From Gammaproteobacteria bacterium (GTDB taxonomy: Bacteria; Pseudomonadota; Gammaproteobacteria; Eutrophobiales; Eutrophobiaceae), in NCBI GenBank assembly GCA_965220815.1, contig OZ244846.1, forward strand, positions 4,145,045 to 4,209,044: a stretch of 64,000 bases of DNA, read 5' to 3'. The first letter of the stretch is position 1. Every line of letters starts with the position of its first letter. The position numbers and the translations under genes were made by a program. The notes below the pieces were generated by a model. That model had not been told where the DNA came from, made no database searches, and saw only the letters and a list, made by a program, of their open reading frames with translations. This document shows positions 28,182-59,877 of the stretch, one piece after another.

Positions 28182-28261
28182 GGGGTCAGAGTAAAATCCT
28201 GTAGAATATTGCCAATGGCGAGGTCAGAGATGATTTTACTCTGGCCCCAAACATTGACCCC
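28182..28261. repeat. REP-like palindromic element, long variant
   Basis: GGGGTCAGAGTAAAAT (28182-28197) … ATTTTACTCTGGCCCC (28233-28248), then a terminal TGACCCC. About 35-bp conserved spacer. Lies in the divergent hppD / marR promoter region. Confidence 0.6.
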
Positions 28262-28274
28262 ATAGTTCTTTATC

Positions 28275-28727
28275 ATGCAACATCGTAAACCCCTGCAACT
28301 GGAAGCGTTTCTCCCTTACCGCTTGTCCTTGCTGTCAAATGCAATCAGTGGCGCCATCGCTGCCGTGTACGGTGACAAGTTCGCCATTTCCATGCCGGAG
28401 TGGCGTATCATGATGATCCTGGCGGAATACCCTGACATATCTGCGGACGAGGTCTGCCGCCGCACAAAAATCGAAAAATCCGTGGTTTCCCGCGCTGTGG
28501 CTCGACTGCTGAAACGCCATCTCATCAACCGGGACATGGATGAAAAAGACCGGCGCCGTTCAATATTGAGGCTTTCCGAGACCGGCCTGTCCGTCTATGA
28601 TGAAGTGATGCCCATTGCCAGGGATTACGAAGCAAAACTGTTGTCCGATTTAAGCGCCGGAGAACTTGAAACCTTTAACGATATGATTGACAGACTGATG
28701 GAAAAGGCAGCCCGTATTGAATATTAA
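28275..28727 (+). CDS. MarR-family transcriptional regulator (HpaR-like)
   Basis: Winged-HTH core ADEVCRRTKIEKSVVSRAVARLLKRHLINR…RRRSILRLSETG. Confidence 0.75.
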   Translation: MQHRKPLQLEAFLPYRLSLLSNAISGAIAAVYGDKFAISMPEWRIMMILAEYPDISADEVCRRTKIEKSVVSRAVARLLKRHLINRDMDEKDRRRSILRLSETGLSVYDEVMPIARDYEAKLLSDLSAGELETFNDMIDRLMEKAARIEY

Positions 28728-28753
28728 TTTCAGTAATAATTGACAGGAGAATA

Positions 28754-29845
28754 TTGATGGAATTAGCCGTTCTCGGCGGCGGACACGGCTCTTATGCCGC
28801 TGCTGCGACTCTCACCGAACAAGGTCACCAGGTGCGTTTCTGGCGCCGTGACAGGAAAGCATTCGAACCGGTATTGCGCTCCGGGTCCGTCAACATCCTG
28901 GACAGCAACGGGGGACGGGAGGTGAAGATACACCGCGTCACGACCGATCTCGCTGATGCACTAGACGGGGTGGAATTGATAGTGATTCCCCTGCCGGCGC
29001 TGACCCACGAAGCCCTGGCAAAAGCGATGGCGCCCCATTTAAGCGACGGCCAGGTCGTTTATCTCCCGCCAGGCACTTTCGGCAGCTACATCTTTGCCAA
29101 AGCCATGCGTGATGCAAGAAACCAGGCAGACGTCAGTTTTGCCGAAACCGGCACCTTACCTTACCTGGCCAGGAAACGCGCAGCCAACCTGGTCGCCGTC
29201 AGCGCCTACGCCACTCGCCTGCCCACCGGTGTCTTTCCGGCGAAAAACTCTGCTCATGCCTTCCCCATACTCGAACAGGCATACCCGGTCATCGAGCGTA
29301 TCGAGGACGCCCTGAGCGGCGCCCTGATGAATGCCGGCCCCATTATCCACCCGCCGTTGATCATGATGAACGCCGGTCCCATGGAGCATTTCGACGAGTG
29401 GGACATCCACAACGAAGGCACACAACCTTCCATCCGCCGCGTCACGGACGTACTGGATGCGGAGAGGATCGCCATCCGCGAGGCATTCGGCTACGCCCCG
29501 CCCCATTTTCCCCTGGCCGACCATTACAGCCTGGGCGGCGACGAGTGGATGTACGGTAATGCCGCCCATGAGAAACTGACTGACAGTGAAGACTGGCGTG
29601 AATACATCGACCTGACAAGCCACCGGTACATGACCGAGGATATGGAACTGGGCCTGGCGTTGCTGGTCTCCTGCGCCGATTACCATGGGCTGGACACGCC
29701 CGTATCCCGCGGCCTGCTGGCTCTCGGTTCGGCAATAACGGGACGGGATTTCCGTGAGACGGGGCGAACCCTGGGGAACCTCGGCCTTGCCGGTATGGAC
29801 CGTGAAGCCCTGGCTGAATTGCTGTATGAAGGTATCCGTAGATGA
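28754..29845 (+). CDS. NAD(P)-dependent opine (octopine / nopaline) dehydrogenase family protein
   Basis: N-terminal Rossmann LAVLGGGHGSYAAAATL. Family-typical length and C-terminal domain. Confidence 0.6.
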   Translation: MMELAVLGGGHGSYAAAATLTEQGHQVRFWRRDRKAFEPVLRSGSVNILDSNGGREVKIHRVTTDLADALDGVELIVIPLPALTHEALAKAMAPHLSDGQVVYLPPGTFGSYIFAKAMRDARNQADVSFAETGTLPYLARKRAANLVAVSAYATRLPTGVFPAKNSAHAFPILEQAYPVIERIEDALSGALMNAGPIIHPPLIMMNAGPMEHFDEWDIHNEGTQPSIRRVTDVLDAERIAIREAFGYAPPHFPLADHYSLGGDEWMYGNAAHEKLTDSEDWREYIDLTSHRYMTEDMELGLALLVSCADYHGLDTPVSRGLLALGSAITGRDFRETGRTLGNLGLAGMDREALAELLYEGIRR

Positions 29846-29891
29846 TATATCCGCAGATTACGCAGATTAACGCAGCTTCTATTGCTGGTGA

Positions 29892-30911
29892 ATGACGCAT
29901 CGAGCGAATCTGCAAGTGACAGGGGAAGCCATAAAAAACAGACGTATTCTTGCTGCCGGCGCTGGACGCATGGGCAGGGGGATTGCCCACATGTTTGCCT
30001 ATGCGGGCTATCCGGTCACTCTGCTTGACGTGAAGGAACGCGACGGGAAAGGGTACAGCCAACTGGTCGATACCGCGCTGGCTGAAGTTGAAACAAACCT
30101 GGTGTTCCTGTCCGAACTTGGTCATATCACCACTGTACAGGTAAAAAAAGTCCTTGAACTCATCCAGGTCAAGCCACTTGCGAGCGCAGCCGGCGAGCTT
30201 GCCGCAGCCGATATCGTCATTGAAGGGGTGCCGGAGACCCGGGATGCGAAAAAGTACGCACTTGAACTGGTCGGAGCGCATGCCCGCGATGATGCCATCG
30301 TGACCTCCACTACCTCTTCCATGCTGGTGACCGAGCTCAAGCAGTGGGTGAAGCGGCCGGAGCGTTTCCTGAATACGCATTTTCTCAACCCTGCCTACCT
30401 GATCCCGCTGGTGGAGGTCAGTCCGTCCCCGGAAACTGATGAGGATGTGGTAACTGACGTCATTGCCCTGTTCGAGGCTATCGGCAAAGTGCCGGTCCGG
30501 TGCTCCGCATCACCGGGTATGATCATCCCGCGCCTGCAATCCCTGCTGATGGCGGAAGCCTGCCGCATGGTGGAAGAAGGTGTGGCCACCCCGGCGGACC
30601 TCGACAAGGCCATCACCCACGGCTTCGGTCCGCGTTATGCGACCCTGGGGGTGATGGAGTTCATCGACTGGGGCGGGGTCGATATCCTCTACTACGCCGG
30701 CCATTACCTGTCAAAGGCGCTGGATTCCCCGCGCCACGCCCCGCCGGAGGAAGTGACAAGAATGATGGAGGACGGGCGCAAGGGCATGCGCGAGGGGCAG
30801 GGTTATTATGATTTTCGCAACATGGACGTGGATGCCTGGCAAAAGGAAAAACTGACCCGCTTCGTCACCCTGCTGGGCGGCCTGGGGCAGATTCCGAAAC
30901 CCGGCGTCTGA
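29892..30911 (+). CDS. 3-hydroxyacyl-CoA dehydrogenase family protein (L-carnitine / 3-hydroxybutyryl-CoA dehydrogenase-like)
   Basis: Rossmann AAGAGRMGRGIAHMFA. 3HCDH N- and C-terminal domains. Confidence 0.7.
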   Translation: MTHRANLQVTGEAIKNRRILAAGAGRMGRGIAHMFAYAGYPVTLLDVKERDGKGYSQLVDTALAEVETNLVFLSELGHITTVQVKKVLELIQVKPLASAAGELAAADIVIEGVPETRDAKKYALELVGAHARDDAIVTSTTSSMLVTELKQWVKRPERFLNTHFLNPAYLIPLVEVSPSPETDEDVVTDVIALFEAIGKVPVRCSASPGMIIPRLQSLLMAEACRMVEEGVATPADLDKAITHGFGPRYATLGVMEFIDWGGVDILYYAGHYLSKALDSPRHAPPEEVTRMMEDGRKGMREGQGYYDFRNMDVDAWQKEKLTRFVTLLGGLGQIPKPGV

Positions 30912-30927
30912 CGATCGGAAAAATCCA

Positions 30928-31010
30928 GGGGTCAGAGTAAAATCCTGGAAAACATCGCCAGTGGCAGTGCCAGTGGTGATTTTACTCTGACCCCAACATA
31001 TTCTGACCCC
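30928..31010. repeat. REP-like palindromic element, long variant
   Basis: GGGGTCAGAGTAAAAT (30928-30943) … ATTTTACTCTGACCCC (30979-30994) … TGACCCC (31004-31010). Sits between convergent gene ends. Confidence 0.6.
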
Positions 31011-31017
31011 TTAATTC

Positions 31018-31637
31018 TTAATCGATCAGGATAATCCCCTTGTTCTTCATGTAGTCGGTGATTATCCCCACTTCTTCTTCGACAGTCATCCGGTCGGTGC
31101 GGAGGTGGATTTCCGGACTTTTCGGTTCCTCGTAGGGATCGTCAATCCCGGTAAAGTTCCTGATCTCCCCTGCTCGGGCTTTCTTGTACAAGCCTTTGGG
31201 ATCGCGCTGCTCTGCGGTCTCCAGGGAGCAATCCACGTGTATCTCGATAAATTCGAACCCCGCCTCCCGGTGTAATTCCCGTACCCGGTCGCGGTCCGCC
31301 CGGTAAGGACTGATAAAGGCGGACAGGACCAGCAGGCCCGCATCCACAAAAAGTTTGGAGATCTCACCGATGCGGCGGATGTTCTCCGTCCGGTCCTCCG
31401 CGGAGAAACCTAAATTCCTGTTTATGCCCATGCGGATATTGTCGCCGTCCAGCCGGTAGCTCAGCTTTCCATATTCGTAAAGAACCGCCTCAAGCGCGAC
31501 TGCAATGGTGCTCTTGCCGCTGCCCGAGAGGCCGGTAAACCAGAGGGTCGCCCCTTTCTGACCCAGAAACCGGTTCCGGTCCGCGCGGGTGATGTCTCCT
31601 TCATGCCAGTGAACATTGGTCGCTTTTTGTTTTGTCA
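31018..31637 (-). CDS. cysC: adenylyl-sulfate (APS) kinase
   Basis: P-loop GLSGSGKST and the full APS-kinase core. GTG at 31637 gives the canonical ~206 aa. Upstream in-frame ATGs at 31704 and 31758 would extend into the divergent thiolase gene. Confidence 0.75.
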
Positions 31638-31702
31638 CGTTCTGTACCTGTGTATTACTGTTCCGATTGAGCGGATGAGAGGAAAACAGTTTAACATGTA
31701 GC

Positions 31703-32911
31703 ATGAACCAGGATATATCCGGAACCAGGGTGAATAACGACAGAAAACCGGTAGTCATCAGTTACGCAGCCAGTAAAGTGGGACGGCTGGAACAGGCGCG
31801 CTTCGAGCATGAAATCCTGGCAGACCTGGTGATCGATGCCGTGCGCTCTGCCGGCCTTGAAAAGGCGGATATCGGCTCCGCCGTGTTCACCGGACCCACG
31901 CCTGCCACGCGCCAGCGGGCCTTCGCCACGTTCATGGCGAGCCGGCTGGGGTTGCGCTGTCACGGACAGATCGCCGAAGTCACAAACCTGGGCATTACCG
32001 GCGGTCTGGCCTTCGACCAGGCCTGTGCCGATATCCGGAGCGGACGGGTCAAAGCAGCGCTCGCACTGGGAATAGAGTACAACTCGGGAGTCGATGCTGC
32101 GACCATGATGGAATCCGGGATACGTGCGGCAGGCGATGTAAATTTCCAGGCTCCTTTCGGAGTGACGCCTATCGCCTGGTACGCGCTGGACGCCGACCGT
32201 TACCTGTTCGAGACCGGGACCACCCGGCGCGATCTTGCCGCAATCGCAGTCAAGAACCGCCGACACGCCATGCTCAACCCCCTGGCCCAGTTCAACTCGC
32301 CCCTGACCGTTGAGGACGTATTGCAGCAACCCCCCATCGTCGAACCGCTCGGGCGTTTCGACGTGCCGCCGCGCAGTGACGGCGCCATTTGCCTTGTGAT
32401 TACATCCGGGCAGGTTGCACGCGAGCTTGGAAAACCTTTTTTACGGGTTCTGGGACGGGGGTTTGCCCACGACGGACACCACCAGGTCGGCTGCAAGCCC
32501 CACGATATGATCGACTTTCCCGCCGCCAGGGAAGCAACCAGGCAGGCGCTTGATGATGCAGGCACAAGGCTGGAACACATCGATGTTGCGGAATTATATG
32601 CCCCCTGCACGATAACGGAGGCGCTGGTTACCGAATCGATCGGGCTGACGGACAAAGGCAAAGGCGCGATCGCAGCGGCAGACGGTGAGACTGCAATCGG
32701 CGGGCGGATCCCGGTATGCACCTCCGGCGGTTGCCTGTCCCGCGGTCATCCGCCCGGCCTGACCGCCCTGTACGGCATTGCTGAATTATTCGACCAACTC
32801 ACGCACGGGGCAGGTGAACGGCAGGTTGCCGGCGCCGGCCTGGGGCTGCACATGTGCGAACTGGGCAATTACAACGCCGCCCTTGCCCACGTGATGGATG
32901 CCGGGAGCTGA
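31703..32911 (+). CDS. thiolase-like protein (SCP-x / non-condensing thiolase family)
   Basis: Thiolase fold with C-terminal GG[CS] region. Immediately followed by a DUF35 partner, as is typical for this family. Confidence 0.7.
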   Translation: MNQDISGTRVNNDRKPVVISYAASKVGRLEQARFEHEILADLVIDAVRSAGLEKADIGSAVFTGPTPATRQRAFATFMASRLGLRCHGQIAEVTNLGITGGLAFDQACADIRSGRVKAALALGIEYNSGVDAATMMESGIRAAGDVNFQAPFGVTPIAWYALDADRYLFETGTTRRDLAAIAVKNRRHAMLNPLAQFNSPLTVEDVLQQPPIVEPLGRFDVPPRSDGAICLVITSGQVARELGKPFLRVLGRGFAHDGHHQVGCKPHDMIDFPAAREATRQALDDAGTRLEHIDVAELYAPCTITEALVTESIGLTDKGKGAIAAADGETAIGGRIPVCTSGGCLSRGHPPGLTALYGIAELFDQLTHGAGERQVAGAGLGLHMCELGNYNAALAHVMDAGS

Positions 32912-32913
32912 TC

Positions 32914-33327
32914 ATGGATATCATCAAGGTCCCCGGACGCCTTCCACTATTACCGGAATACTCCAGTTTCACCGAGACGTTCCGGCAAGGTCTGGAGGCA
33001 GGAAAATTCATGACGACCAGGTGCGCCGCATGCGGTAAATTGACGTTTCCTCCGAAACAATATTGCCCGAACTGCTGGTCGGACGAGATGAACTGGGTCG
33101 AACTGTCAGGAAAAGGCGTCCTGTACGCAAGAACGACCATCCACGCCGCGGCCACACAATTCCGGGACGAAGTGCCGTTCAGCGTCGGCATTGTCGATCT
33201 GGAAGAAGACGTCAGGCTGGTTACGGGTTTAATCGATGACCCGGCACGGATCGAAAACGATGCTGCAATCAGGCTGGTAGCATTGTCATACGAAGACGGG
33301 CTGTTATTCGCGGCAACACCGGCATAA
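32914..33327 (+). CDS. Zn-ribbon / OB-fold protein (DUF35 family), thiolase partner
   Basis: CAACGKLTFPPKQYCPNC zinc ribbon followed by an OB-fold region. Starts 3 nt after the thiolase stop. Confidence 0.65.
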   Translation: MDIIKVPGRLPLLPEYSSFTETFRQGLEAGKFMTTRCAACGKLTFPPKQYCPNCWSDEMNWVELSGKGVLYARTTIHAAATQFRDEVPFSVGIVDLEEDVRLVTGLIDDPARIENDAAIRLVALSYEDGLLFAATPA

Positions 33328-33336
33328 CAGATATGT

Positions 33337-33481
33337 GGGGTCAGAGTAAAAATACACAGAGACAATGGGGACGGACTTCAAGTCCGTCCCCGGCATGCCG
33401 AGATGTGTGGGGTCAGAGTAAAATTTCTGGCGAAATTCTTACTCTGACCCCGGAATTCGCCGGAAATTTTACTCTGACCCC
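33337..33481. repeat. tandem cluster of REP-like elements plus an embedded GC hairpin
   Basis: Arms GGGGTCAGAGTAAAA at 33337 and 33409. Right arms (T)TTACTCTGACCCC ending 33451 and 33481. Perfect hairpin GGGGACGGACT-tcaa-AGTCCGTCCCC at 33367-33391. Confidence 0.6.
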
Positions 33482-33589
33482 TGATATCAACGGGTTATCC
33501 TGCATAGGGAAAATGCGGCATTGCATAAATTTTTGCTAGGATAAGGTACTAGAATAATTTTGAGTGGTCTTTCCTTTACGGGGGTCGTT

Positions 33590-35956
33590 GTGGATAAAAA
33601 GTATCTCTTACCTGTTATATCCGGTTTCCTGTTAATGCTGGTTTCCACCCTGACCGGCGCCCAGGCGGTGCTTGAAGAGGTTGTGGTGACCGCCCAGAAA
33701 CGTGAACAGTCCATCCAGGACGTGCCTATCTCAATAACGGCGATAAGTGGGGAAAATCTGCAGGCTAATATCGTTCAGGATGTATACGATCTTCGTGCGA
33801 CCGTGCCTGCGCTTGAGGTCAGGGGTGTGGACCCGCCCAGCCAGGGCGCCGCGTTCGCCATCAGGGGTCTGGGATCTTCAGTTTTTAACATGGGATTTGA
33901 ACCGACTGTCGGTACGTTTGTCGATGGTGTATATATCAGTCGCTCCGGCCTGGTGGCGAGCAGTGACCTGCTTGACCTTGACAGGGTAGAAGTTTTGAAA
34001 GGGCCTCAGGGTACATTATTCGGCAAGAACACCACCGGTGGCGTTGTCCATTTCATAACGAATAAACCCTCGTTTGATGAAGTCGAAGGATCTGCTGAAG
34101 TAACCTACCAGGAATATGACCAGGTCAGGGTGAGAGGCGTGATTAATGTGCCTGTCCAGGACAACTTCGCGGCCCGTATCGCCGCTTCCTGGCATAACGG
34201 AGACGGCTATCTTGACAACGCCAACGGCGAGGATCTCAATGACCGGGACCGTTTCACGATTCGCGGCCAGTTGATGTGGGAGCCGAGCGCCGATTTGAAC
34301 ATACGGGTTATTGCCGACTACAGTGAAGTGGATGAGAACTGTTGCTGGCCGGTACGGAATACCAACAACCCGCTTAACGCGTTTGTAAACGTGCCTCTGG
34401 CTGCCGCGAATGGTTCCAATGTAATTGACCCGCCTGATGTGGACAACCTCCGTGTAGCCGCTAACGGCGACCTGATCTTCGACGCCGAAGACTTTGGCAT
34501 ATCCGGTGAAATAAACTGGCAACTGGGTAATATTACGGTGACTTCCATCACGGCGTACAGGGATTACCAGGACCTGAATACCAAGGACAACGACTTTACC
34601 GGTGTGGATATATTAACCAATACAGACACCTTGCCCGAGGTGAGTATTGTCTCGGAAGAATTCCGTATTGCCGGAGTGAGTGAGGACATAGGTATCGGTC
34701 AGTCACTGGACTGGGTAGTTGGATTCTATTATGCCAACGAGAAGGTCCAGCGTACCCGGGAATTTGTCTGGGGACCGCAAATCACTTCGTTTCCATTTTT
34801 TGCCCCCGGCTTGTTCGGCAATATTCCAGGCCGGGCTTTCTATGATCAATTCAGCCAGGAAGTGGATACGATAGCCGGTTTTGGGCATATCACCATCGAC
34901 ATCAATGACAAGCTGTCCCTGACAGGTGGCGTCCGATATACCAATGACGACAAAAACGCCAGTCACAGGGGTCAGACAGGTAATGCCATGGCGCCTTTCA
35001 ATAACCTGCCGCTGGCGGTAGTGCATGATTTCGACGCCAAACGGGAAGACAGCGAAGCCACGGGCACGGCCAGTATCCAGTACCAAGTGACGGACAATGT
35101 CATGGGGTTTTTCACCTACAGCCGCGGCTATAAATCAGGCGGCATCAGCCTGAACCGGGATGCGGCAGGTAATGCGCTGGGATTTGGTCACCCGGTATTC
35201 GGGTGCCCGCCGGGAGGCACCCCGGTACCTGCATCGCCATTCTGTGCTTTCCCGCCGGGCGATCCTACATTTGACCCGGAATTTGCCGATCATTACGAAA
35301 TCGGCTTCAAAAGCACGCTGTTCAACAACCGGATGCGGTTAAACGCTTCTCTCTGGAAAACGGAGTTTGAAGGACTGCAGCTCCAGACGTTAAGGCCGGA
35401 CGGCTCTTTTCAGGTCATCAATGTATCAGGAGCAACTTCGCAAGGCATTGAGGCAGATGTAAATATTGCCGCTACCGATTACCTGGACGTCTTTTTCGCA
35501 GTTCAATTCCTGGATGCGGATTTTGACGATAACGCTCCGGCATTAACACCAGGACTGCCGCCAATGGGCGGCGAGGACCTGCCTTTCGCATCCGACATTA
35601 CCGGTAACCTGGGCGCCAATCTCAACCTGCCAATCGGTGACAGCGGCTGGAACTTTTTCCTCAACGGCAACCTGTTTTTCCGGAGCGAATATTTTTCCTT
35701 CACGGAACCGGACCCCGCCCGCACCCAGAAAGCACATGAACTGCTGAGTCTTCGTGGCGGCGTGAGTTCGCCCGATGGACAATGGGAACTCGCGGTGTGG
35801 TGCCGCAACTGCACGGATGAAAGGTATAAATACAGTGATTTTGCCATTCCGTTTGACGGAGCAATACTCTCCCCGCCAGGCACCCCACTCGGAACGCTTT
35901 GGTCACACTATGGTTCACCCAGGTTTGTCGGGGTAACCGGCACTTTCCGTTTCTGA
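33590..35956 (+). CDS. TonB-dependent outer-membrane receptor
   Basis: GTG start 33590 giving signal peptide (M)DKKYLLPVISGFLLMLVSTLTGAQA. Plug EEVVVTAQKREQSIQDVPISITAI. C-terminal F. Confidence 0.8.
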   Translation: MDKKYLLPVISGFLLMLVSTLTGAQAVLEEVVVTAQKREQSIQDVPISITAISGENLQANIVQDVYDLRATVPALEVRGVDPPSQGAAFAIRGLGSSVFNMGFEPTVGTFVDGVYISRSGLVASSDLLDLDRVEVLKGPQGTLFGKNTTGGVVHFITNKPSFDEVEGSAEVTYQEYDQVRVRGVINVPVQDNFAARIAASWHNGDGYLDNANGEDLNDRDRFTIRGQLMWEPSADLNIRVIADYSEVDENCCWPVRNTNNPLNAFVNVPLAAANGSNVIDPPDVDNLRVAANGDLIFDAEDFGISGEINWQLGNITVTSITAYRDYQDLNTKDNDFTGVDILTNTDTLPEVSIVSEEFRIAGVSEDIGIGQSLDWVVGFYYANEKVQRTREFVWGPQITSFPFFAPGLFGNIPGRAFYDQFSQEVDTIAGFGHITIDINDKLSLTGGVRYTNDDKNASHRGQTGNAMAPFNNLPLAVVHDFDAKREDSEATGTASIQYQVTDNVMGFFTYSRGYKSGGISLNRDAAGNALGFGHPVFGCPPGGTPVPASPFCAFPPGDPTFDPEFADHYEIGFKSTLFNNRMRLNASLWKTEFEGLQLQTLRPDGSFQVINVSGATSQGIEADVNIAATDYLDVFFAVQFLDADFDDNAPALTPGLPPMGGEDLPFASDITGNLGANLNLPIGDSGWNFFLNGNLFFRSEYFSFTEPDPARTQKAHELLSLRGGVSSPDGQWELAVWCRNCTDERYKYSDFAIPFDGAILSPPGTPLGTLWSHYGSPRFVGVTGTFRF

Positions 35957-36018
35957 TTTCGCTTTCACGGCAGCCTGATGGGAGCGAACTGCAACAGTTC
36001 GCTCCCTCCTGTTAATCC

Positions 36019-38324: not shown

Positions 38325-38356
38325 GTCATGCCTCCTTCATTTTTATTACCGCGGAC

Positions 38357-39940: not shown

Positions 39941-39992
39941 AATGATGTCAAATTCGATGATGGCGTCCCCTGTGTAAGATACCTGGATACCT

Positions 39993-40051
39993 GGGGTCAG
40001 AGTAAAAATTCTCCGAATTTCTTACTCTGACCCCAATGATCCTCTGACCCC
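39993..40051. repeat. REP-like palindromic element, short variant
   Basis: GGGGTCAGAGTAAAAATTCTCCGAATTTCTTACTCTGACCCC, then CTCTGACCCC. Confidence 0.6.
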
Positions 40052-40063
40052 GACTGCTCCCCC

Positions 40064-40552: not shown

Positions 40553-40666
40553 GCAATTCAAATAATTATCGGGAGTCAGATAAAGTTGTGTAATCAGCAT
40601 ATCTTCAGTTTCATGATAATAGTTCCCCCATGATAACAACGGACATAGCGATATTAAAGCTACGAA

Positions 40667-46543: not shown

Positions 46544-46636
46544 TAATAAACCTCTACGGTTCTGTTTTGCGCTGTCATTGTCGGCATTCCTGCCAAACGT
46601 ATAATTTTTAACACTGAAAGCAGACTTTATTACATA

Positions 46637-48157: not shown

Positions 48158-48168
48158 CATTAATTTTT

Positions 48169-48207
48169 GGGGTCAGAGTAAAACTCTGTGAGTTTTACTC
48201 TGACCCC
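48169..48207. repeat. REP-like element, minimal perfect-hairpin variant
   Basis: GGGGTCAGAGTAAAACT-ctgtg-AGTTTTACTCTGACCCC, a 17-bp perfect stem 12 nt after the oxidase stop. Confidence 0.65.
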
Positions 48208-48231
48208 TACATTACTGGAGGCTCACTGAAA

Positions 48232-48708: not shown

Positions 48709-48710
48709 AT

Positions 48711-48745
48711 AAAAGGGGGACAGATTTAAAATCTGTCCCCCTTTT
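48711..48745. terminator. bidirectional rho-independent terminator
   Basis: AAAA-GGGGGACAGAT-ttaaa-ATCTGTCCCCC-TTTT between convergent genes. The T-run overlaps the nucleoside hydrolase stop. Confidence 0.6.
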
Positions 48746-49766: not shown

Positions 49767-49782
49767 GGGAACAATAAAAAAG

Positions 49783-49820
49783 GGGTCAGAGTAAAACTCT
49801 GCGAGTTTTACTCTGACCCC
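49783..49820. repeat. REP-like element, minimal perfect-hairpin variant
   Basis: GGGGTCAGAGTAAAACT-ctgcg-AGTTTTACTCTGACCCC. Lies between the TonB receptor stop and the hydrolase start. Confidence 0.65.
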
Positions 49821-49841
49821 GTGGTATCGGCCTCACGGGTA

Positions 49842-52100: not shown

Positions 52101-52201
52101 TATTGTTCTCCTGGCAGGGTAATATTGTCTTGATATTATCGCTGTGATTTTACACCAATATTTGCCCGTTGTGAATGTAGTTTTAAAAACGCCGCGCGAA
52201 C

Positions 52202-52228
52202 GGGGTGATTTTACTCTGACCCCTGAAT
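52202..52228. repeat. REP-like half element
   Basis: GGGGTGATTTTACTCTGACCCCTGAATT, a single arm with a short complementary foot. Confidence 0.5.
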
Positions 52229-52231
52229 TAT

Positions 52232-52783
52232 TCACGTTCGGAGCACGCGGCCGGTAAGCGCATCCCTGATTGCGCTGGGCCTTTTATCTCCGCCGACATT
52301 GCCTGGAACGTAACAGTTCACATCCGGGCCGAAATAAGCCCTGACGCGCCGCCGGGTTCGGGCCGGCCGGCAACCGGACGGGTTGGCGCTGGTAGAGATG
52401 AGCGCTCCTGCCCTGTCGCACAGTTGCCGTACAACGGGGTGCGCCGGCACCCGCACGGCCAGGGTATCGTGCCGGCCCGTCAGCCAACGCGGCGTAAAAG
52501 GATGCGCCGGCACCAGCCAGGTGACCGGGCCGGGCCATGAACCGGTTATTTCTTCCAGCCTGGGCACCCGGGAAAAATCCACCAGGTCGGATAACTGTTC
52601 GATGCTTGAGGCGGCAACGATCAGGCCCTTGTCGGCGGGTCGCCGCTTCAGCCGCAGCAGTTCAGCCACCGCGTCTTCATCCCAGGGGTCGCAGCCCAGG
52701 CCCATCACCGCCTCGGTGGGATAGGCGATGACGCCGCCGTCTTGCAGGGCAATCAGCGCATTATGGACGTGCCAGCTTTTCAA
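52232..52783 (-). CDS. tsaC: L-threonylcarbamoyladenylate synthase TsaC (YrdC family)
   Basis: Colinear with E. coli TsaC (VIAYPTEAVMGLGCDP…WPGPVTWLVPA…STSANPSG). TTG start at 52783. Confidence 0.8.
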   Translation of the reverse strand: MKSWHVHNALIALQDGGVIAYPTEAVMGLGCDPWDEDAVAELLRLKRRPADKGLIVAASSIEQLSDLVDFSRVPRLEEITGSWPGPVTWLVPAHPFTPRWLTGRHDTLAVRVPAHPVVRQLCDRAGALISTSANPSGCRPARTRRRVRAYFGPDVNCYVPGNVGGDKRPSAIRDALTGRVLRT

Positions 52784-52819
52784 AATAGCTTAACCGGTGG
52801 ATACCTGGGGTCGATAAAT

Positions 52820-52886
52820 GGGGTCAGAGTAAAATCTTGAGGAACGTGGCCGATAGCATGATCAGGGGAGATTTTACTCTGACCCC
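52820..52886. repeat. REP-like palindromic element, long variant
   Basis: GGGGTCAGAGTAAAAT (52820-52835), a ~35-bp spacer homologous to those at 28198 and 30944, then ATTTTACTCTGACCCC (52871-52886). Confidence 0.6.
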
Positions 52887-52892
52887 TGGATA

Positions 52893-53399
52893 TCATAGTT
52901 GCTCCTGCAATGCGGCATCCTTGGCCTGGACCGAGCGGGTCATCTGCTCCCGTTCCGCGGCGATGGCTGCGGCCAGGTCCGCGTCCTGCAGGGCGAGGAT
53001 CTGCGCGGCCAGGTAGGCGGCATTCTTCGCACCGGCCTTGCCGATCGCAACGGTGCCCACCGGGATGCCTCCCGGCATCTGCACCGTCGCCAGCAATGCA
53101 TCGATACCGCTTAACGGCCCGGCGTCCAGGGGTACGCCGATGACCGGCTTCGTGGTGGTTGCGGCCACCGCGCCGGCAAGGTGCGCGGCCAGGCCGGCGG
53201 CGGCGATGAATACCGCGCAACCCCGCGCTTCCGCGTCCCTGATGTAAGCCTTGGTTGCCTCGGGGGTACGGTGCGCGGAGGTGATTTTCACTTCCCTGGC
53301 AATGGAAAAGCTGTCCAGCACTTCAACTGTGGAACGCATTACGGGCAGGTCGGAATCGGAACCCATTAAAATTGCAACGAACGGTTTGTTTTCACTCAT
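52893..53399 (-). CDS. purE: 5-(carboxyamino)imidazole ribonucleotide mutase
   Basis: Near-colinear with E. coli PurE ([14 protein letters not shown]…SAHRTP…[10 protein letters not shown]…GVPL…GIPVGT). Confidence 0.9.
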
Positions 53400-53426
53400 C
53401 GTTATTTCTCATCATTAAAATATGCG

Positions 53427-53448
53427 GGGTCAGAGTAAAATCACCCCT
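53427..53448. repeat. REP-like half element
   Basis: GGGGTCAGAGTAAAATCACCCC followed by TGAATT, the mirror image of the copy at 52202. Confidence 0.5.
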
Positions 53449-53453
53449 GAATT

Positions 53454-55802
53454 TCACTTACGGCGTTTGCGCGCCGCCGGCGCTGCGGCAATCAGGTCCC
53501 GGCATTCCTGCAGGGTCAGGTCCCCGGCTTCCCTGTCCTTCGGTATCCTTGCGTTCTTTTTCCCATCCGTAATATACGGCCCGTAGCGTCCGTTGAGGAT
53601 GGAGATACCCTCTTTTTCAAATACCTTGATGTATTTTTCGGCGTCCGCGGCCTTCTTTTCCCGCACCAGTTCCAGCGCCCGCGGCAAATCAATCGTATAA
53701 GGATCATCCTCCTTTTTCAATGAGGCGAACTTGTCGTCATAACGCACATAAGGACCGAAGCGGCCGATGTTGACGCTGATCTTCTCACCCTCTTCGGAGA
53801 CGCCCAGTTGCCGCGGCAGGTGGAACAGTTCCAGGGCCTGTTCCAGGCTGATGGTATCCATGCGCTGGTCGGGCAGCAGGCTGGCAAACTTCGGATCTTC
53901 GGCGTCATCCCTGGCGCCGATTTGAACGAACGGCCCATAGCGTCCCATGCGCACCGTCACCGGCCTCCCGGTGGCCGGATCATCGCCCAGGCTGCGCGGG
54001 CTCACCGCTTCACTGCGGCTTACTCCACCCTCCTTGTCCTGCACCCGCGCCGAGAACGGTTCCCAGAACTCCCTCATCAGCGGGATCCACTCCTTCTCGC
54101 CCCTGGAAACGGCATCGAGTTCATCTTCCAGCCTGGCGGTAAAATCATAATCGACATAACTGTCGAAATGCTCGGTCAGGAACCTGTTCACGACGCGCCC
54201 CACGTCGGTGGGAACGAAGCGCTTCTTGACCATCTCCACGTATTCGCGGTTACGCAGGGTGGAAATGATGGCGGCATAAGTCGAGGGCCTGCCGATACCG
54301 TATTCCTCCAGGGACTTGACCAGGGTCGCCTCGGAATAACGCGGAGGAGGTTCGGTAAAATGCTGTTCGGGCCGTATTTTCAACAATCCCGCCGCATCAC
54401 CCGGCTGCATGGGAGGCAGTTTCCTCTCAGCGGCATCATTCCCCTGCCCCGTTTTGCGGTCATCTTCTCCTTCGGTATAGACAATCATGAAACCCTTTTC
54501 AACCACGGTAGCGCCGTTGGCCCGCATCAGCGCGCCGGGGCCGCATTCCAGGTCCACTGCGACCGTATCGATGACGGCCTGGGCCATCTGGCTGGCCAGC
54601 GCCCGCTTCCAGATCAACTCGTACAGCCGGAACTGCTCCCTGGACAGTTTCGAGTGGATTTCCCGGGGCACGCGCTGCACGGAAGTCGGCCGGATCGCCT
54701 CGTGCGCCTCCTGGGCGTTTTTAGACCTGGTCCGGTACCGGCGCGGGTTTTCGGGCAGGTACTTTGCGCCGTATTGTTTGTCTATGTACCGGCGCATTTC
54801 ATTGATCGCATCCGCCGCTAGGTTCACCGAGTCGGTCCTCATATAAGTAATCAGGCCGACCGCTCCTGAACCGGTATCAATACCTTCATACAACTGTTGC
54901 GCGACACGCATGGTCTGCTGTGCGGTGAACCCGAGCTTGCGCACGGCCTCCTGCTGCAGCGTGGAGGTGATGAACGGCGGCGCCGGCTGGCGCTTGCGCT
55001 GTTTACGGTCAACCTTGCTGACGATCAGCGCCCCGTTGTGCCGGGCCTCCTGCCCGGCCTGCCCGCGCTGTGCCGCGGCATTGTTTTCCAGCGCTCCCGC
55101 CACCTCCTGCGCCCGTTCTTCGTCCGTAATGCTGAACTGCTCGATTTTCCGCTCCTCATAACGCACCAGTCGGGCCTTGAACTCCATCCCCGCCCGTTCC
55201 AGGTCCGCTTCGATAGTCCAGTACTCACGGGTCTTGAACTGTTCAATTTCCTCTTCGCGTTCGACGATCATCCTCAGGGCGGGGCTCTGGACCCGGCCGG
55301 CGGAGAGACCCCTGCGAATCTTCTTCCACAATAACGGGGACAGGTTGAAGCCTACCAGGTAATCCAGGGCGCGCCTTGCCTGCTGGGCGTTGATCAGGTC
55401 CCATGAAAGCTCGCCGGGATTGTCGATGGCGCGTAATACCGCGTTCTTCGTGACCTCATGAAACACCACCCGTTTTACTTCCTTGCGCTTGAGCGCGCCG
55501 CGCTCCTTGAGCAGTTCAAACAGGTGCCATGATATGGCTTCACCTTCCCTGTCGGGGTCGGTGGCCAGGTAAAGAACGTCGGATTTCTTCAGGGCACGCA
55601 CGATCGCGTCCACGGAACGGGCATTTTTATCGATGATTTCATAACGCATGGCGAATTCCTTTTCCGGGTCCACCGCGCCGGTTTTCGGCAGCAGGTCGCG
55701 CACGTGGCCGTTGGAGGCCATAACGGTATAACCGCTGCCCAGGTAACGGTTCAAGGTCCTTGCCTTTGCAGGGGATTCAACTACAACTAATGCTTCAGAC
55801 AT
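53454..55802 (-). CDS. topA: DNA topoisomerase I
   Basis: MSEALVVVESPAKARTLNRYLG Toprim start. Catalytic Tyr region (RTDSV…). C-terminal zinc-ribbon / basic tail. Confidence 0.9.
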   Translation of the reverse strand: MSEALVVVESPAKARTLNRYLGSGYTVMASNGHVRDLLPKTGAVDPEKEFAMRYEIIDKNARSVDAIVRALKKSDVLYLATDPDREGEAISWHLFELLKERGALKRKEVKRVVFHEVTKNAVLRAIDNPGELSWDLINAQQARRALDYLVGFNLSPLLWKKIRRGLSAGRVQSPALRMIVEREEEIEQFKTREYWTIEADLERAGMEFKARLVRYEERKIEQFSITDEERAQEVAGALENNAAAQRGQAGQEARHNGALIVSKVDRKQRKRQPAPPFITSTLQQEAVRKLGFTAQQTMRVAQQLYEGIDTGSGAVGLITYMRTDSVNLAADAINEMRRYIDKQYGAKYLPENPRRYRTRSKNAQEAHEAIRPTSVQRVPREIHSKLSREQFRLYELIWKRALASQMAQAVIDTVAVDLECGPGALMRANGATVVEKGFMIVYTEGEDDRKTGQGNDAAERKLPPMQPGDAAGLLKIRPEQHFTEPPPRYSEATLVKSLEEYGIGRPSTYAAIISTLRNREYVEMVKKRFVPTDVGRVVNRFLTEHFDSYVDYDFTARLEDELDAVSRGEKEWIPLMREFWEPFSARVQDKEGGVSRSEAVSPRSLGDDPATGRPVTVRMGRYGPFVQIGARDDAEDPKFASLLPDQRMDTISLEQALELFHLPRQLGVSEEGEKISVNIGRFGPYVRYDDKFASLKKEDDPYTIDLPRALELVREKKAADAEKYIKVFEKEGISILNGRYGPYITDGKKNARIPKDREAGDLTLQECRDLIAAAPAARKRRK

Positions 55803-55836
55803 ATTTTCTTACACGCTTTATTGTTATTCTCAAAAT

Positions 55837-57003
55837 TCACTGCGACGGTTCCCGCTCAGCACGCATATACAGGCCCGGCGCAACCGCTGTTATCAATCCT
55901 TCCAGTTCCAGGTTCAACAACTTTCCCATGATGTCTTCGATGCCGAGTCCGGTCATGTCCACAATTTCATCGAGGCCTGTCGGTTCGTACCCTATATTAT
56001 CAAGCAGCACTTTTTCCCGTTCGTCAAGTGTATTGATCTTCCCCGCCCGGGCTGAGGCTCCTGCCCGGGAAATCTCTTCAAGGTTACGGAACCGGCCGAT
56101 AACGCCCGCAATATCTTCCACCCGCTCTGCGAGTCCGGCCCCTTCCCGCAACAGGCCGTGGCAACCCTGTTTCATGGGGTTCCTGATGGAACCCGGCACT
56201 GCGAACACCTCCCGGTTCTGTTCCAGGGCATGCCTTGCCGTGCTCAGCGAGCCGCTCCTGCGGGCCGCCTCAACCACCAGGACTGCCTCGCTCAGGCCGC
56301 TTATAACCCGGTTGCGGCGCGGGAAATTGTACGGCAGCGGCCGCCAGGACAGGGGGAATTCGGACACCAGGGCGCCGCTTTCACTGATCCTGTCTGCCAG
56401 TTCCGCATTGGACTTCGGATAGATGCAATTCAGCCCGTTACCCAGCACCGCCACGGTCCTGCCCTGTTGCCCCAGCGCTCCCCGGTGCGCTTCCGTATCT
56501 ATCCCCCGGGCCAGGCCGCTGGTCACCGTAATCCCCTGCCTTGCCAGTTCCCCGGCAAAATAGCGGGCGTCCCTGCGTCCGTCCATGGTAGGTTTTCGAC
56601 TCCCGACCAGGGCAACCTGGCAACTCACCAGCACTTCCGGGTCACCGCGTACGAACAGGCATGGCGGCGGCGCCGCTATCTGTTTCAATATAGCCGGGTA
56701 ATGTGGACTGTCAAGCGGGACCAGGTGGTAATCCGGACGTTCCAGGCACCGCAATGCGCGTTCAATTTCTTTCGCGTCGGGTTTTCGCAGCGCCTCGAGG
56801 ACGGGCCCCGGCAATTGGTAACGGTCGATTGCCCCGGTCCTGGCTGCATTCAGCACGGCCTGTGCAGTCCCGAAGTCCCGCAGCAATTGAGACAGGTCAT
56901 GCTCAGCCGCGGCCGCGGCATGCAACAGCGCCAGCCAGGCATATGTTTGGGAATGTTCTGAAGCCCCGTCCATGACTGTGTTCACCGATATCCTCCCTGA
57001 CAT
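55837..57003 (-). CDS. dprA: DNA-processing protein DprA (Smf)
   Basis: DprA Rossmann-like core GSRKPT…GLARGIDTEAHRGAL…AVLGNGL…VVEAARRSGSL. C-terminal winged-helix region. Confidence 0.85.
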   Translation of the reverse strand: MSGRISVNTVMDGASEHSQTYAWLALLHAAAAAEHDLSQLLRDFGTAQAVLNAARTGAIDRYQLPGPVLEALRKPDAKEIERALRCLERPDYHLVPLDSPHYPAILKQIAAPPPCLFVRGDPEVLVSCQVALVGSRKPTMDGRRDARYFAGELARQGITVTSGLARGIDTEAHRGALGQQGRTVAVLGNGLNCIYPKSNAELADRISESGALVSEFPLSWRPLPYNFPRRNRVISGLSEAVLVVEAARRSGSLSTARHALEQNREVFAVPGSIRNPMKQGCHGLLREGAGLAERVEDIAGVIGRFRNLEEISRAGASARAGKINTLDEREKVLLDNIGYEPTGLDEIVDMTGLGIEDIMGKLLNLELEGLITAVAPGLYMRAEREPSQ

Positions 57004-57115
57004 GTCAAGAAAATTCTGCTGATGCCTGCGAAGGCATGCAATGTGGAATATGTAAAAGCGTAGAGCGAATCAGGGAAGGAGTCAAACATTTCAATACATG
57101 GGGTCACCCATTAGC

Positions 57116-58369
57116 CAGGGCAAGATCATACTTTTTGTCATAAGTAAGAGGTTTTTTATTCCAATAAGATATAGATAAGTGGGGAACTCATGGGTTTTGC
57201 GGGGATCAGATCAGTAATTACCCCAAACTGAGGAGATTCCCATGAGTTTACTGACCCATTTGGCGACGATTGACGACCCGCGGCGTGATATTAACAAGAA
57301 GCATGAGTTATTGGACATTCTGTTTCTGACAGTGAGTGCGGTGCTGTCGGGGGCAGAAGGCTGGAAAGACATCAAGGAATTCGGTGATGAGAAGCTGGAT
57401 TGGCTGCGTCGCTACCGGCCGTTTTTGAACGGGATGCCGGTGGATGACACGATTGCGCGGGTGGTGCGGGCGCTGGACCCGGAGCAGTTCAACCGGGCGT
57501 TTATCGATTGGGTGAATGAGGTACGGGCGGCGTCCGGTCAGGAGCAGATAGCGCTGGACGGGAAGACCCTGCGGCGGTCTCATGACGGGGAGAAACACAC
57601 GGCCCTGCACAGCATCACGGCCTGGGGACATGAGTGCGGGTTGGTATTGGCGCAGATGAAGTCACAGGGGAAGAAGAATGAGCAGTCGTCGGTGATGGAG
57701 ATGCTGGAGTTGTTGCAGGTGAAGGGGGCGCATATCACGGCGGATGCGATGAATACGCAGAAGAAGATAGCGCAGAAGATTCACAAGAAAGGCGGCGATT
57801 ACACGTTGTCGCTGAAGGACAATCACAAGACGTTGCGCAAGGAAATACAGGCGTACTTTCATAAGGTTACGCGCGATGCGCCGCAGCAGGTAGCGGTGCA
57901 TGAGGAGGTGGACGGCGGGCATGGCCGGATAGAGAAACGCACCTGCCGGCAGTTGCCGGTGGATGAGTGGGTGAGTGGGGCGGCCAGGTGGCCGGGCTTG
58001 CAAACCCTCATTGAGATGGAGCGGGAGCGGCGCCTGCCCGGGAAAGCGGTGGAGACGGAGATACATTACTATATCAGCTCCTTGCCCGTGGATGCCCAGC
58101 GGGTGGCGCAGGGGATACGGCGGCACTGGGAGGTGGAGAACAAGGCGCATTGGGTGCTGGATGTGGCCTTTAAGGAGGATGACAGTCGCATCCGCAAGGG
58201 GGACGGGGCGGAGAACGTGGCGATTATCCGGCGCTTCTGTCTGAACCTGGCGCGGTTGGACCCCAGGAAGAACAGCATGCGGGGGAAACTCAAGCAGGCC
58301 GGGTGGAGTGATACCAGACGGGCGGAAATCCTGTTCGGAGCAGACATATAAAAGTATGCGGTTGCCCTG
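57116..58369 (+). mobile_element. ISAs1-family insertion sequence with a 10-bp target-site duplication
   Basis: Imperfect ~20-bp terminal inverted repeats CAGGGCAAGATCATACTTTT / rc CAGGGCAACCGCATACTTTT. Direct repeat ACCCATTAGC at 57106-57115 and 58370-58379. 1254 bp. Confidence 0.7.
57242..58351 (+). CDS. ISAs1-family transposase (H-repeat-associated / YhhI-like)
   Basis: MSLLTHLATIDDPRRDINKKHELLDILFL… N-terminus and DDE core characteristic of ISAs1. Confidence 0.85.
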   Translation: MSLLTHLATIDDPRRDINKKHELLDILFLTVSAVLSGAEGWKDIKEFGDEKLDWLRRYRPFLNGMPVDDTIARVVRALDPEQFNRAFIDWVNEVRAASGQEQIALDGKTLRRSHDGEKHTALHSITAWGHECGLVLAQMKSQGKKNEQSSVMEMLELLQVKGAHITADAMNTQKKIAQKIHKKGGDYTLSLKDNHKTLRKEIQAYFHKVTRDAPQQVAVHEEVDGGHGRIEKRTCRQLPVDEWVSGAARWPGLQTLIEMERERRLPGKAVETEIHYYISSLPVDAQRVAQGIRRHWEVENKAHWVLDVAFKEDDSRIRKGDGAENVAIIRRFCLNLARLDPRKNSMRGKLKQAGWSDTRRAEILFGADI

Positions 58370-58379
58370 ACCCATTAGC

Positions 58380-59830
58380 CAGTCGTTGTCAAGTGGCACA
58401 GATTAACCCTCCTGAATAAACAGGTATTATAAACCAAGCACCAGATTGAGCTACGCACCTGTTGTTTCGCTCAAGTGTTGTCGTCGTCTACCCCTACGCA
58501 ACAGTCACCCATCAGGATCAAGTCCCCCGGAGGAGACCCTGGCTTGCGCCCCAGAAACCTATCAGTACCACCCCGCGTCCACGGGCATTAAACAGATTCA
58601 CGGCCTTGACATCGACCACCCTATCGGTCGGCTCACGGTGTGGGCGTATCCTCTTCTCTGTGTGCAACGTGACGCACCCGGACCAATCAGAGTCACGGGT
58701 TATGACCCAACCTCACCGCGGGTTAACCGGGTGCGTCAAACCCTATACAAACACTTTGTCTTCGTCGAACGGCACCCCTCTCAATAGAATGTAATAACAG
58801 GCCCGCGCCAGTTTATGCGCCAGCGCCTTCAAGGCCACCACCCGGTGTGTCTTCGCCTCCTTGCGCTGGTAGAACCGACGCGCCTTGTCATGATGCCGGA
58901 CGGCCAGGTTGGCCGCCTCCATGTACGCCCAGGCCAGGTAGTGATTACCGTTCTTGCGATTGCCCTCGCCCTTCTTCCTGCCGTTGCTCTCCCGCCGAGA
59001 GGCCACACAACGACAGTAGGAGGCATACTGCCCCACACTGCCAAACCGGCTCACCGGCCCGGTCTCCAGTAAAATCGTCTGCGCCAGGATCGGCCCGATG
59101 CCGCACACACTCTGTAACAACCGGTAATCCCGGTCCGCCCGCACCTGCGCCAGCACCGCCCGCTCCAACGCCCTGACCTGCGCATCCAGGGCCCGGCTCA
59201 TATGCAAATTGCACTGCAACGCCAACTGTACGTTCGCATCGCCCAGCACCGGACACTCGAAGCCCTTGGCCTTCACCTCACTCACCGGGATCGCCTGCCC
59301 CGTCAAGCGGTGGTACTGCGTCTTGAAACTCAACAGGTGCCGGGTGCGGTCCTGCACCAGTTGCAGCCGCTTGCGCAGCACGTCCCGCAAACCCCGCAAG
59401 GCCGGCGGATAGATATACCCCGTCGGTAATATCCTTAAACGCATCAGGTGCGCCAGGTGAAACGCATCGTAGCGGTCATCCGTGCGCTTGAGACCCTGGT
59501 ACTGCACCACCTTCGCCGGATTCACCAGGCGCACCGCAAACCCCGCACCCTGCAACGCATCCGCCAGCCAGTACCAGTTGAAGGTCGACTCCACCGCCAC
59601 CGCCTCCAACTCTCGTTGATAGGGCGAGAGCGCCCCCGTAATAACCGCCGCATCGTTCCTGAAACGCCGCTCCAGCACACGCGTGTCCTGCTCGTCAATC
59701 ACGCACACGTAACTATTGTTTGAATGTAAATCAATCCCCGCATATAGTGTCATGGTCAGTCTCCTCATGTTGAATGGTAACCACCCAACAGTCTAACCTG
59801 CCTCGGCAGGTTAGGGAGACTGGCTTATGA
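58380..59830 (-). mobile_element. IS110-family insertion sequence (copy 2), approximate extent
   Basis: Contains the IS110 transposase. A 9-bp-stem hairpin TAACCTGCC-tcg-GCAGGTTA lies just upstream of the tnp start. Ends not defined (no IRs in this family). Confidence 0.35.
58743..59753 (-). CDS. IS110-family (DEDD) transposase
   Basis: MTLYAGIDLHSNNSYVCVIDE… DEDD N-terminal domain. C-terminal Transposase_20 region (GIGPILAQTILLETG). ATG at 59753. Confidence 0.85.
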   Translation of the reverse strand: MTLYAGIDLHSNNSYVCVIDEQDTRVLERRFRNDAAVITGALSPYQRELEAVAVESTFNWYWLADALQGAGFAVRLVNPAKVVQYQGLKRTDDRYDAFHLAHLMRLRILPTGYIYPPALRGLRDVLRKRLQLVQDRTRHLLSFKTQYHRLTGQAIPVSEVKAKGFECPVLGDANVQLALQCNLHMSRALDAQVRALERAVLAQVRADRDYRLLQSVCGIGPILAQTILLETGPVSRFGSVGQYASYCRCVASRRESNGRKKGEGNRKNGNHYLAWAYMEAANLAVRHHDKARRFYQRKEAKTHRVVALKALAHKLARACYYILLRGVPFDEDKVFV

Positions 59831-59877
59831 GTATCAGAGTAAACATTCTTCGAATTTCTTTCTCTGACCCCGGAATT
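59831..59877. repeat. degenerate REP-like element (short variant) abutting the IS110 copy
   Basis: GTATCAGAGTAAACATTCTTCGAATTTCTTTCTCTGACCCCGGAATT. Homologous to 33409-33458 and 39993-40034, with the left arm eroded. Confidence 0.5.

Follow-up and report, generated by a model that had tools for sequence, protein, structure and literature searches.

The stretch of 64,000 nucleotides (nt) analysed here, hereafter the window, comes from an uncultured gammaproteobacterium (contig OZ244846.1, assembly GCA_965220815.1) and carries many copies of a short palindromic repeat between its genes, which raises the question of what kind of element this repeat is and how its copies came to be where they are. 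A first-pass annotation had read them as an abundant, mobile family resembling repetitive extragenic palindromes (REPs) or miniature inverted-repeat transposable elements (MITEs). Our results support this interpretation in substance and refine it, in that the repeats are of the GGGGWSAS type and not REPs tagged with GT[AG]G. They form an intergenic family of doublets and singles, are gained and lost between strains, and have ends identical to the sequences flanking Y1 transposase genes in other genomes. It appears likely that they are non-autonomous, REPIN- or MITE-like elements derived from the terminal inverted repeats of TIRtrons, a TIRtron being a single-copy gene for an IS200-like Y1 (HUH) tyrosine transposase, the TIRYT, between inverted GGGGTCAGAG... 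ends.

The window was searched for GGGGTCAGAGTAAAA with at most 2 mismatches, and 19 matches were obtained, where 0.10 were expected and none of 100 shuffles gave more than 1. All of them were confined to positions 28182-59871, about 32 kb of core genome, where re-reading of the loci upheld the earlier count of ten intergenic sites. Every copy contains GGGGTCAG, starts with GGGG and ends with CCCC, and the sole GTAA is internal to an arm. The long, short and minimal variants described in the first pass were all recovered, but further forms exist (22-nt singles and a nested compound). The long form is 67 nt (n = 3) and is found at 28182-28248 in the divergent promoter region of the HPPD and MarR genes, at 30928-30994 between two convergent genes and at 52820-52886 between purE and a yrdC-like gene. 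The short form is 42-43 nt (33409-33451, and 39993-40034 with 42 nt). The minimal form is a 39-nt hairpin present at 48169-48207, where the loop is 9 nt, and at 49782-49820, with 97% identity between the two; its stem is perfect, as had been reported, but has 18 bp instead of 17 bp, and the second copy starts at 49782 and not at 49783. The fourth form consists of single 22-nt units, GGGGTGATTTTACTCTGACCCC at 52202-52223 in the gap between yrdC and a TonB-receptor gene and its complement (GGGGTCAGAGTAAAATCACCCC) at 53426-53447 between topA and purE. These two places had been listed as inverted-copy loci, and the motif is indeed present, but as one unit each, the second starting one nucleotide before the 53427 given earlier. 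Two further loci had to be reinterpreted. The supposed tandem at 33337-33481 is a nested compound, in which outer arms (33337-33351 and 33467-33481) surround an unrelated GGGGACGGA hairpin (33367-33391) and the short form at 33409-33451. The supposed short or degenerate form at 59831 is a complete short-form element cut at CTCTGA|CCCC by the insertion of a 2.7-kb insertion sequence (IS), with its main part at 59834-59871 and the remaining GGGG at 57100-57103. Except for 49782-49820 (minus), no strand was assigned to the copies.

Folded as single strands, the paired forms gave -16 to -24 kcal/mol (z about -9), and the 22-nt unit folded alone gave no significant structure. The long-form spacer contained an invariant GCC...GGC mini-stem as its only structure, with no covariation seen, and no RNA family in Rfam 15 matched the window at gathering score. 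The copies never enter coding sequence, as had been claimed: all lie outside credible genes and overlap just spurious open reading frames (ORFs) or over-extended starts. The WGQSK peptides had been correctly attributed to translation of the repeat, being the reading of tGGGGTCAGAGTAAA, and these spurious ORFs are thereby explained. The adjoining genes are ordinary chromosomal ones (HPPD, MarR, TonB-dependent receptors, purE, yrdC-like, topA and dprA), and the settings vary from a divergent promoter region (28182) and convergent gene ends (30928) to co-directional genes and operon-like gene pairs.

Such hairpins could in principle be immobile and kept similar by host selection, serving as terminators, mRNA stabilisers or protein-binding sites. 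The minimal copy at 49782-49820, directly downstream of a TonB-receptor gene and followed by TTTTTT, looks like an intrinsic terminator; at the same site four other strains (L034, L035, L037 and L038) have a terminator-like GGGGGACAGA hairpin with a T-run instead, and in the L036 orthologue a compensatory change has altered both arms (A to G, T to C) with pairing kept. This copy is the sole one of its kind, since a GC-rich stem followed by a T-tract 3' of a gene was found in just one of about ten copies, and other copies are situated in a divergent promoter region (one) or within operon-like gene pairs. Moreover, transposase genes of distant genera have the very same 15-mer at their flanks (see below), and selection for termination would not conserve one specific 15-mer across orders. 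Host-selected function is therefore an improbable explanation of the family.

The connection to transposase genes came from a scan of genomes for GGGGTCAGAG followed after 17-47 nt by CTCTGACCCC, which matched at least 119 blocks of 8 kb each from very diverse bacteria. Among the matches listed, the exact TAAAA extension of GGGGTCAGAG was seen in Pseudohongiella, Rheinheimera, metagenome-assembled genomes (MAGs) of Lysobacterales and others, and 5 of the 119 blocks encoded PF01797 (Y1_Tnp) proteins. In the block L107, GATCAAAGGGGTCAGAGTAAG lies about 75 nt upstream of the start codon of the Y1 gene. The L107 protein was found to have over 7,700 homologues, the best 120 being 231-240 amino acids (aa) long, about 60% identical and mostly metagenomic. 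The genomic context was fetched for five homologues whose flanks were not known beforehand (P0001, P0002, P0006, P0053 and P0069), and in all five contexts inverted GGGGTCAGAG ends flank the gene for the 231-240 aa transposase, in one case on the downstream side. Four of the five have inverted [ATCAAA]GGGGTCAGAGT... / ...ACTCTGACCCC[TTTGAT] ends on both sides of the gene, which read ...ATCAAAGGGGTCAGAGT(AA/CA)TTGATT and AATCAA..ACTCTGACCCCTTTGAT (the L107 lineage, P0002, P0006 and Zobellella aerophila are the homologues with two-sided ends). The fifth, P0069 from Pseudoalteromonas ruthenica, is truncated where its contig stops, so that only the downstream end is seen. The proteins share PF01797 at about residues 20-130, the motifs LMxNHVH, GTLWEGRF and YIELNPVRA, and a conserved tail of about 100 aa.

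A composite pattern was then used, in which the exact 15-mer is followed, after a gap of 86-146 nt, by codons for the invariant QRGNN. At least 120 metagenome stretches contain this pattern, against a chance expectation that by our own rough estimate is far below 1, as do two IMG/VR contigs, L009 and L022. The 15-mer alone had given 33 matches in viral contigs, mostly single and at chance level, of which L009 and L022 later turned out to be TIRtrons; in L009 a complete gene is preceded by two copies of the 15-mer of the window itself and followed by one in inverted orientation. The inverted right end was located at -3 to +92 nt relative to the stop codon in 48 of 62 complete ORFs (L167-L286), and for 12 of these 48 the TGA of CTCTGACCCC is itself the stop. 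Inverted flanking of a Y1 gene by the repeat sequence was thus seen in L159-L166, in L009 and in these 48 ORFs of L167-L286. The typical layout is atatttGGGGTCAGAGTAAAAACTC, gene, GAGTTTTTACTCTGACCCCaaatat, and the minimal hairpin of the window, GGGGTCAGAGTAAAACTCTGTGAGTTTTACTCTGACCCC, is in effect these two ends joined with the gene removed.

Some observations on these loci may be added. The transposase ORF is interrupted before 200 aa in 38 of the 122 pattern matches (L167-L286); among the decayed loci are L252, where both ends are present but the ORF has 76 aa, and L022, whose copy is truncated. From these sequences, decayed TIRtrons appear to be common in nature. Two Y1 transposases of other clades, at 1003-1826 of L152 (a proteobacterial MAG) and 6228-6975 of L142 (a Planctomycetaceae MAG), were rejected as examples of the family, their flanks being other GGGG-type repeats (GGGGACGGGGG and GGGGACATCACTGAT) and not GGGGTCAGAG. 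These flanks are different GGGG-initial inverted repeats (GGGGACGGGGGTAATTAA and GGGGACATCACTGAT), so that beginning with GGGG may be a general trait of this class of transposase. Just beyond many elements of the window, the outer end is repeated in part and in tandem, as (CT)GACCCC plus 7-10 nt: TGACCCC at 28255-28261 beside the long form at 28182, TTCTGACCCC at 31001-31010 beside that at 30928, GGGGTC at 52806-52811 beside that at 52820 and CTCTGACCCC at 40042-40051 beside the short form at 39993. The same was often seen in the fetched homologue contexts and beyond other transposase flanks (L159, L164, L165, L166 and L260), and these partial copies could be traces left by cleavage and joining.

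The distribution of the motif also bears on whether the repeats might be DNA uptake sequences, which are likewise short over-represented motifs often arranged as inverted pairs near gene ends. This has scarcely any chance of being correct given that neither coding sequence nor a 16.7-kb accessory island in the window contains the motif, and that it recurs verbatim in distant genera, where it flanks transposase genes.

If the elements derive from TIRtrons, each would correspond approximately to a left end joined to a right end, and such a junction makes a near-perfect palindrome that could be extruded to form a hairpin once single-stranded. The genome would encode, or have encoded in the past, a TIRYT outside the window that binds the GGGGTCAGAG end on single-stranded DNA, as at replication forks, and cuts and rejoins the DNA so that units are moved or copied without target-site duplication. 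Recombination, slippage and hairpin-templated repair between copies would then give rise to single units, 1.5-mers, nested forms and loop inversions, and individual copies might be co-opted, for example 49782-49820 as a putative terminator. These steps are modelled on the biochemistry of the IS608 TnpA and of the E. coli TnpA-REP (cited in PMC6006769 and PMC3733652).

Occupied and empty sites were compared between strains, as the first-pass annotation had proposed, using eleven loci obtained via exact-protein look-ups (88-98% identical to the window) and site-by-site alignments, and presence and absence of copies were both seen. The flanks of the window copies are mutually unrelated, and in five sister MAG loci (L063, L100, L105, L103 and L113) the repeat is the only thing in common with the window, so the copies are neither restricted to this window nor parts of a single duplicated segment. 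At the yrdC|TonB site a 27-nt unit is present in the window and in L036, whereas L034, L035, L037 and L039 have a clean gap; the filled and empty alleles differ by these 27 nt with no target duplication. At the topA|purE site L038 has the full 67-nt long form and the others have the 22-nt unit. The 9-nt loop of the 48169 hairpin is inverted relative to L034, L035 and L037. In the 33337 compound, 72 nt (approximately 33334-33405) bounded by an 18-nt direct repeat, TGTGGGGTCAGAGTAAAA, are absent in L288, and the 30928 long form has a 6-nt spacer indel in L287 and L288. Finally, two sites have swapped occupants, holding a GGGGTCAGAG element in some strains and a hairpin GGGGGACAGAT...ATCTGTCCCCC in others. 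Taken with the match to Y1 gene flanks elsewhere, the unrelated surroundings and the turnover between strains agree with the mobile family that had been proposed. The two 22-nt units form a perfect inverted pair around purE and the yrdC-like gene (1.2 kb), and since one of them is absent in four strains they have separate histories and are not a composite mobile unit.

The same site comparison speaks to a different class of enzyme. Inverted repeats of Tn3-family transposons begin with GGGG, and the elements, being pairs of terminal inverted repeats with GGGGTC ends, resemble what MITEs of a DDE transposon such as a Tn3-family member would look like. A DDE origin is nevertheless very improbable: the filled and empty alleles at the yrdC|TonB site show no target-site duplication, arms of 15-18 nt and elements of 39-67 nt are far below the size of Tn3-derived miniatures, the DDE transposases in the window (ISAs1-like and IS5-like) have unrelated ends, and the arms are identical to the flanks of Y1 transposases.

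Several results weigh against this derivation from TIRtrons. As stated in the first pass, there is no RAYT (REP-associated tyrosine transposase) or TnpA-REP gene in the window; tblastn with 62 transposases found neither a gene nor a fragment there or in 16 related-strain loci. Searches with L107-type and L211-type proteins returned, among the best 120 matches each, no homologue on the 4,346,575-bp source contig, which leaves the cognate enzyme unproven in this genome, where it may be absent; the same two lists included none on contigs of other members of the window's purE 90% cluster. To our knowledge, transposition of the TIRYT type has never been shown experimentally. The idea that the long-form spacer is a piece of TIRtron interior was rejected, as its local alignments to the interiors sampled had scores no higher than those of shuffled sequences. 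A hairpin of one end with the motif in its loop recurs in several lineages, but it folds weakly and not in a consistent way (-0.1 to -2.9 kcal/mol; z between +0.7 and -2.3). The idea that each end forms a stable hairpin by itself was accordingly rejected, and such a hairpin is no more than a putative recognition structure of the enzyme. The long forms at 28182, 30928 and 52820 are present in every strain sampled (28182 in all five of L287-L291), and several of the strain polymorphisms could be deletions or recombination and not insertions.

Because the window and the strain loci yielded no transposase, and the best 120 matches none on the source contig, a relic population is a live alternative. 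The lineage would have lost the TIRYT that once spread the elements, and all present differences between strains would stem from deletion, slippage, hairpin-templated repair and homologous recombination, with no transposition still under way. The fixation of the long forms in all strains sampled fits this picture, as do the 72-nt and 6-nt indels, both bounded by direct repeats, and the fact that about a third of the metagenomic TIRtrons have interrupted transposase ORFs. It is harder to reconcile with the yrdC|TonB site, where the 27-nt unit is cleanly present or absent and the flanking repeats are too short to drive its deletion, and with sites that hold different element types in different strains; in addition, absence from lists of the best 120 is weak evidence. 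We therefore regard a pure relic as rather unlikely, and continue to favour TIRtron-derived elements.

The repeats are in turn a target for another mobile element. The element at 59834-59871 is intact in L034 and L035 as GGGGTCAGAGAAAGAAATTCGAAGAATGTTTACTCTGA|CCCC, and in the window its arm is split by an IS1111/IS110-type IS of 2.73 kb (57104-59833, minus strand) with TCA at both junctions. This IS has 15-nt subterminal inverted repeats and a DEDD transposase gene (58743-59768, minus). Nested in its 3' non-coding part is an ISAs1-like IS (57116-58369) with 20-nt inverted repeats, a 10-bp target duplication (ACCCATTAGC) and a transposase gene at 57242-58351 (DDE_Tnp_1 and DDE_Tnp_1_assoc). Other copies of the repeat are interrupted at this same position, CTCTGA|CCCC, by relatives of the IS1111-type element whose transposases are 90% identical (in one case the right arm of a long form is hit), and a relative at 76% identity is inserted at CCTGA|CCCC (relatives L292-L296); given their differing outer flanks, these insertions lie in independent repeat copies. 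Several contigs that carry such relatives stop exactly at the repeat, and since many related contigs end there, the repeats probably explain breaks in assemblies. The targeting thus appears to be repeat-specific, and judging from the sequence it is possibly RNA-guided: the 3' non-coding region of about 380 nt contains GACTCTGATTGG and ATGGGTGAC, which resemble the target and donor junctions and which we infer could be guide-RNA segments, and GACTCTGA / GGGTGAC may be the targeting segments. A fixed insertion position is a known property of the IS110/IS1111 members that target REPs and of IS4321/IS5075 in the inverted repeats of Tn21-type transposons. The element described here resembles these in having one position, short subterminal inverted repeats and a long 3' non-coding region, and differs in that its target is the GGGGTCAGAG family; its guide RNA is putative. 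The IS110-type gene at 16184-17635 was considered as a second repeat-targeted insertion and rejected, as it is 26% identical and has no clear split arm.

A broader generalisation may be put forward tentatively and with slightly less than an even chance of being correct: that GGGGTCAGAG(TAAAA) is a near-invariant recognition end of transposase subclass 2.1 (see below) across many orders, that this subclass, although published as lacking REPs, spawns dense REPIN-like populations in some uncultured marine Gammaproteobacteria, and that these populations support a dedicated IS1111-type IS landing at CTCTGA|CCCC. Three layers would then be stacked, with the host at the base, a repeat that depends on the transposase above it, and an IS living as a parasite of that repeat.

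Other features of the window are of less direct concern. Two other GGGG...CCCC hairpins are present, GGGGACGGACTTCAAGTCCGTCCCC at 33367-33391 and GGGGGACAGATTTAAAATCTGTCCCCC at 48715-48741 (no strand assigned). The latter has an A-run before it and a T-run after it and is not a member of the family; it also fits GGGGWSAS and trades places with GGGGTCAGAG elements between strains at two sites, and could represent another small family or no more than a terminator. The first 28 kb of the window lack repeats, partly because 5616-22299 (16.7 kb) is a transposase-rich accessory island, which is absent from L287 and carries no repeat copies. Its transposases are a DDE type (5823-7670), the IS110 type mentioned above (16184-17635) and an IS5-like one (20355-21713), the IS5-like element having 35-nt inverted repeats at 20168 and 21785. 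Also found on the island are a hydantoinase operon, a TonB receptor and a STAND NTPase; GC content varies along it between 0.50 and 0.62.

These findings place a dense repeat family of an uncultured 4.35-Mb gammaproteobacterium in a named transposase class. The kind is already known but little studied, namely the TIRYT-associated GGGGWSAS repeats, of which this is a new and dense member, and a class described as lacking REPs or having modest families is here tied to REPIN-like populations. Weight is added by the invariance of the 15-mer across environmental lineages, by the contrast with the published absence of REPs and by the repeat-specific IS, which is a natural case of sequence-programmed IS110/IS1111 targeting. 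The repeat also provides a concrete oligonucleotide substrate for a first biochemical test of TIRYT enzymes, and its turnover at strain level provides markers for typing these populations.

Three known systems invite comparison. Literature searches with the repeat sequences themselves (GGGGTCAGAG, CTCTGACCCC) gave nothing but primers and unrelated matches. Di Nocera et al. 2013 (PMC3733652) described RAYT-like genes with GGGGWSAS terminal inverted repeats in place of GTAG REPs, coined the terms TIRtron and TIRYT for them and reported that a few species have repeat families, which they called "moderately abundant". In the classification of Quentin et al. 2018 (PMC6006769), 20 of the 26 TIRYTs belong to TnpAY1 subclass 2.1, which has a median length of 238 aa, NHVH, W[EQ] and YIELNP motifs and a C-terminal helix-turn-helix-like tail, corresponds to Group 1 of Bertels and is recorded there as lacking REPs. 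For RAYT Group 1, Bertels et al. 2017 (PMC5581495) found a low flanking 16-mer frequency (12). In our data GGGGTCAG fits the GGGGWSAS consensus of PMC3733652 and PMC6006769, the associated proteins (231-240 aa, NHVH, GTLWEGRF, YIELNPVRA) match subclass 2.1 in Table 1 of PMC6006769, and the GT[AG]G at the 5' foot by which these two papers define canonical REPs is missing from all copies; the family was therefore filed with the TIRYTs and TIRtrons and not with the canonical REPs or REPINs of RAYT Groups 2/3 and TnpAY1 subclasses 2.2, 2.4, 2.5, 2.7 and 2.8. It resembles TIRtrons in that its ends fit GGGGWSAS (GGGG[AT][CG]A[CG]), flank genes for NHVH/YIELNP proteins of about 238 aa, at times overlapping the 3' end of the gene, and have intergenic copies as singles, dimers and clusters. 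It differs in its density, with about ten loci in 32 kb of core genome against the published "moderately abundant", no REP and 16-mer frequency of 12, in the recurrence of the exact 15-mer in at least 120 metagenomic TIRtrons, and in that the cognate gene of its own genome was not found in the window, the strain loci or the best 120 protein matches.

Although it is of the TIRYT kind, the family behaves like a REPIN population. As in the REP, BIME and REPIN systems with their RAYT (TnpA-REP) in E. coli and Pseudomonas, the repeats are short intergenic palindromes occurring as singlets and inverted doublets (22 nt and 39-67 nt, respectively, in the window), they flank a single-copy Y1 transposase, their occupancy varies between strains and they serve as insertion targets of the IS110 family. 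Unlike REPs, they have no GT[AG]G foot, and what is conserved is the outer end, GGGGTCAGAG; the two arms of a doublet pair near-perfectly with each other, whereas each REP unit is a stable hairpin alone; and the associated protein belongs to another subclass, with a C-terminal extension of about 100 aa. With IS200/IS605 elements and their miniatures the family shares the HUH/Y1 catalytic family, the lack of target-site duplication and, as we infer, a single-stranded hairpin substrate. Those elements, however, have unlike left and right subterminal hairpins and are multi-copy together with their gene, whereas the ends of a TIRtron are inverted repeats and its gene is typically single-copy.

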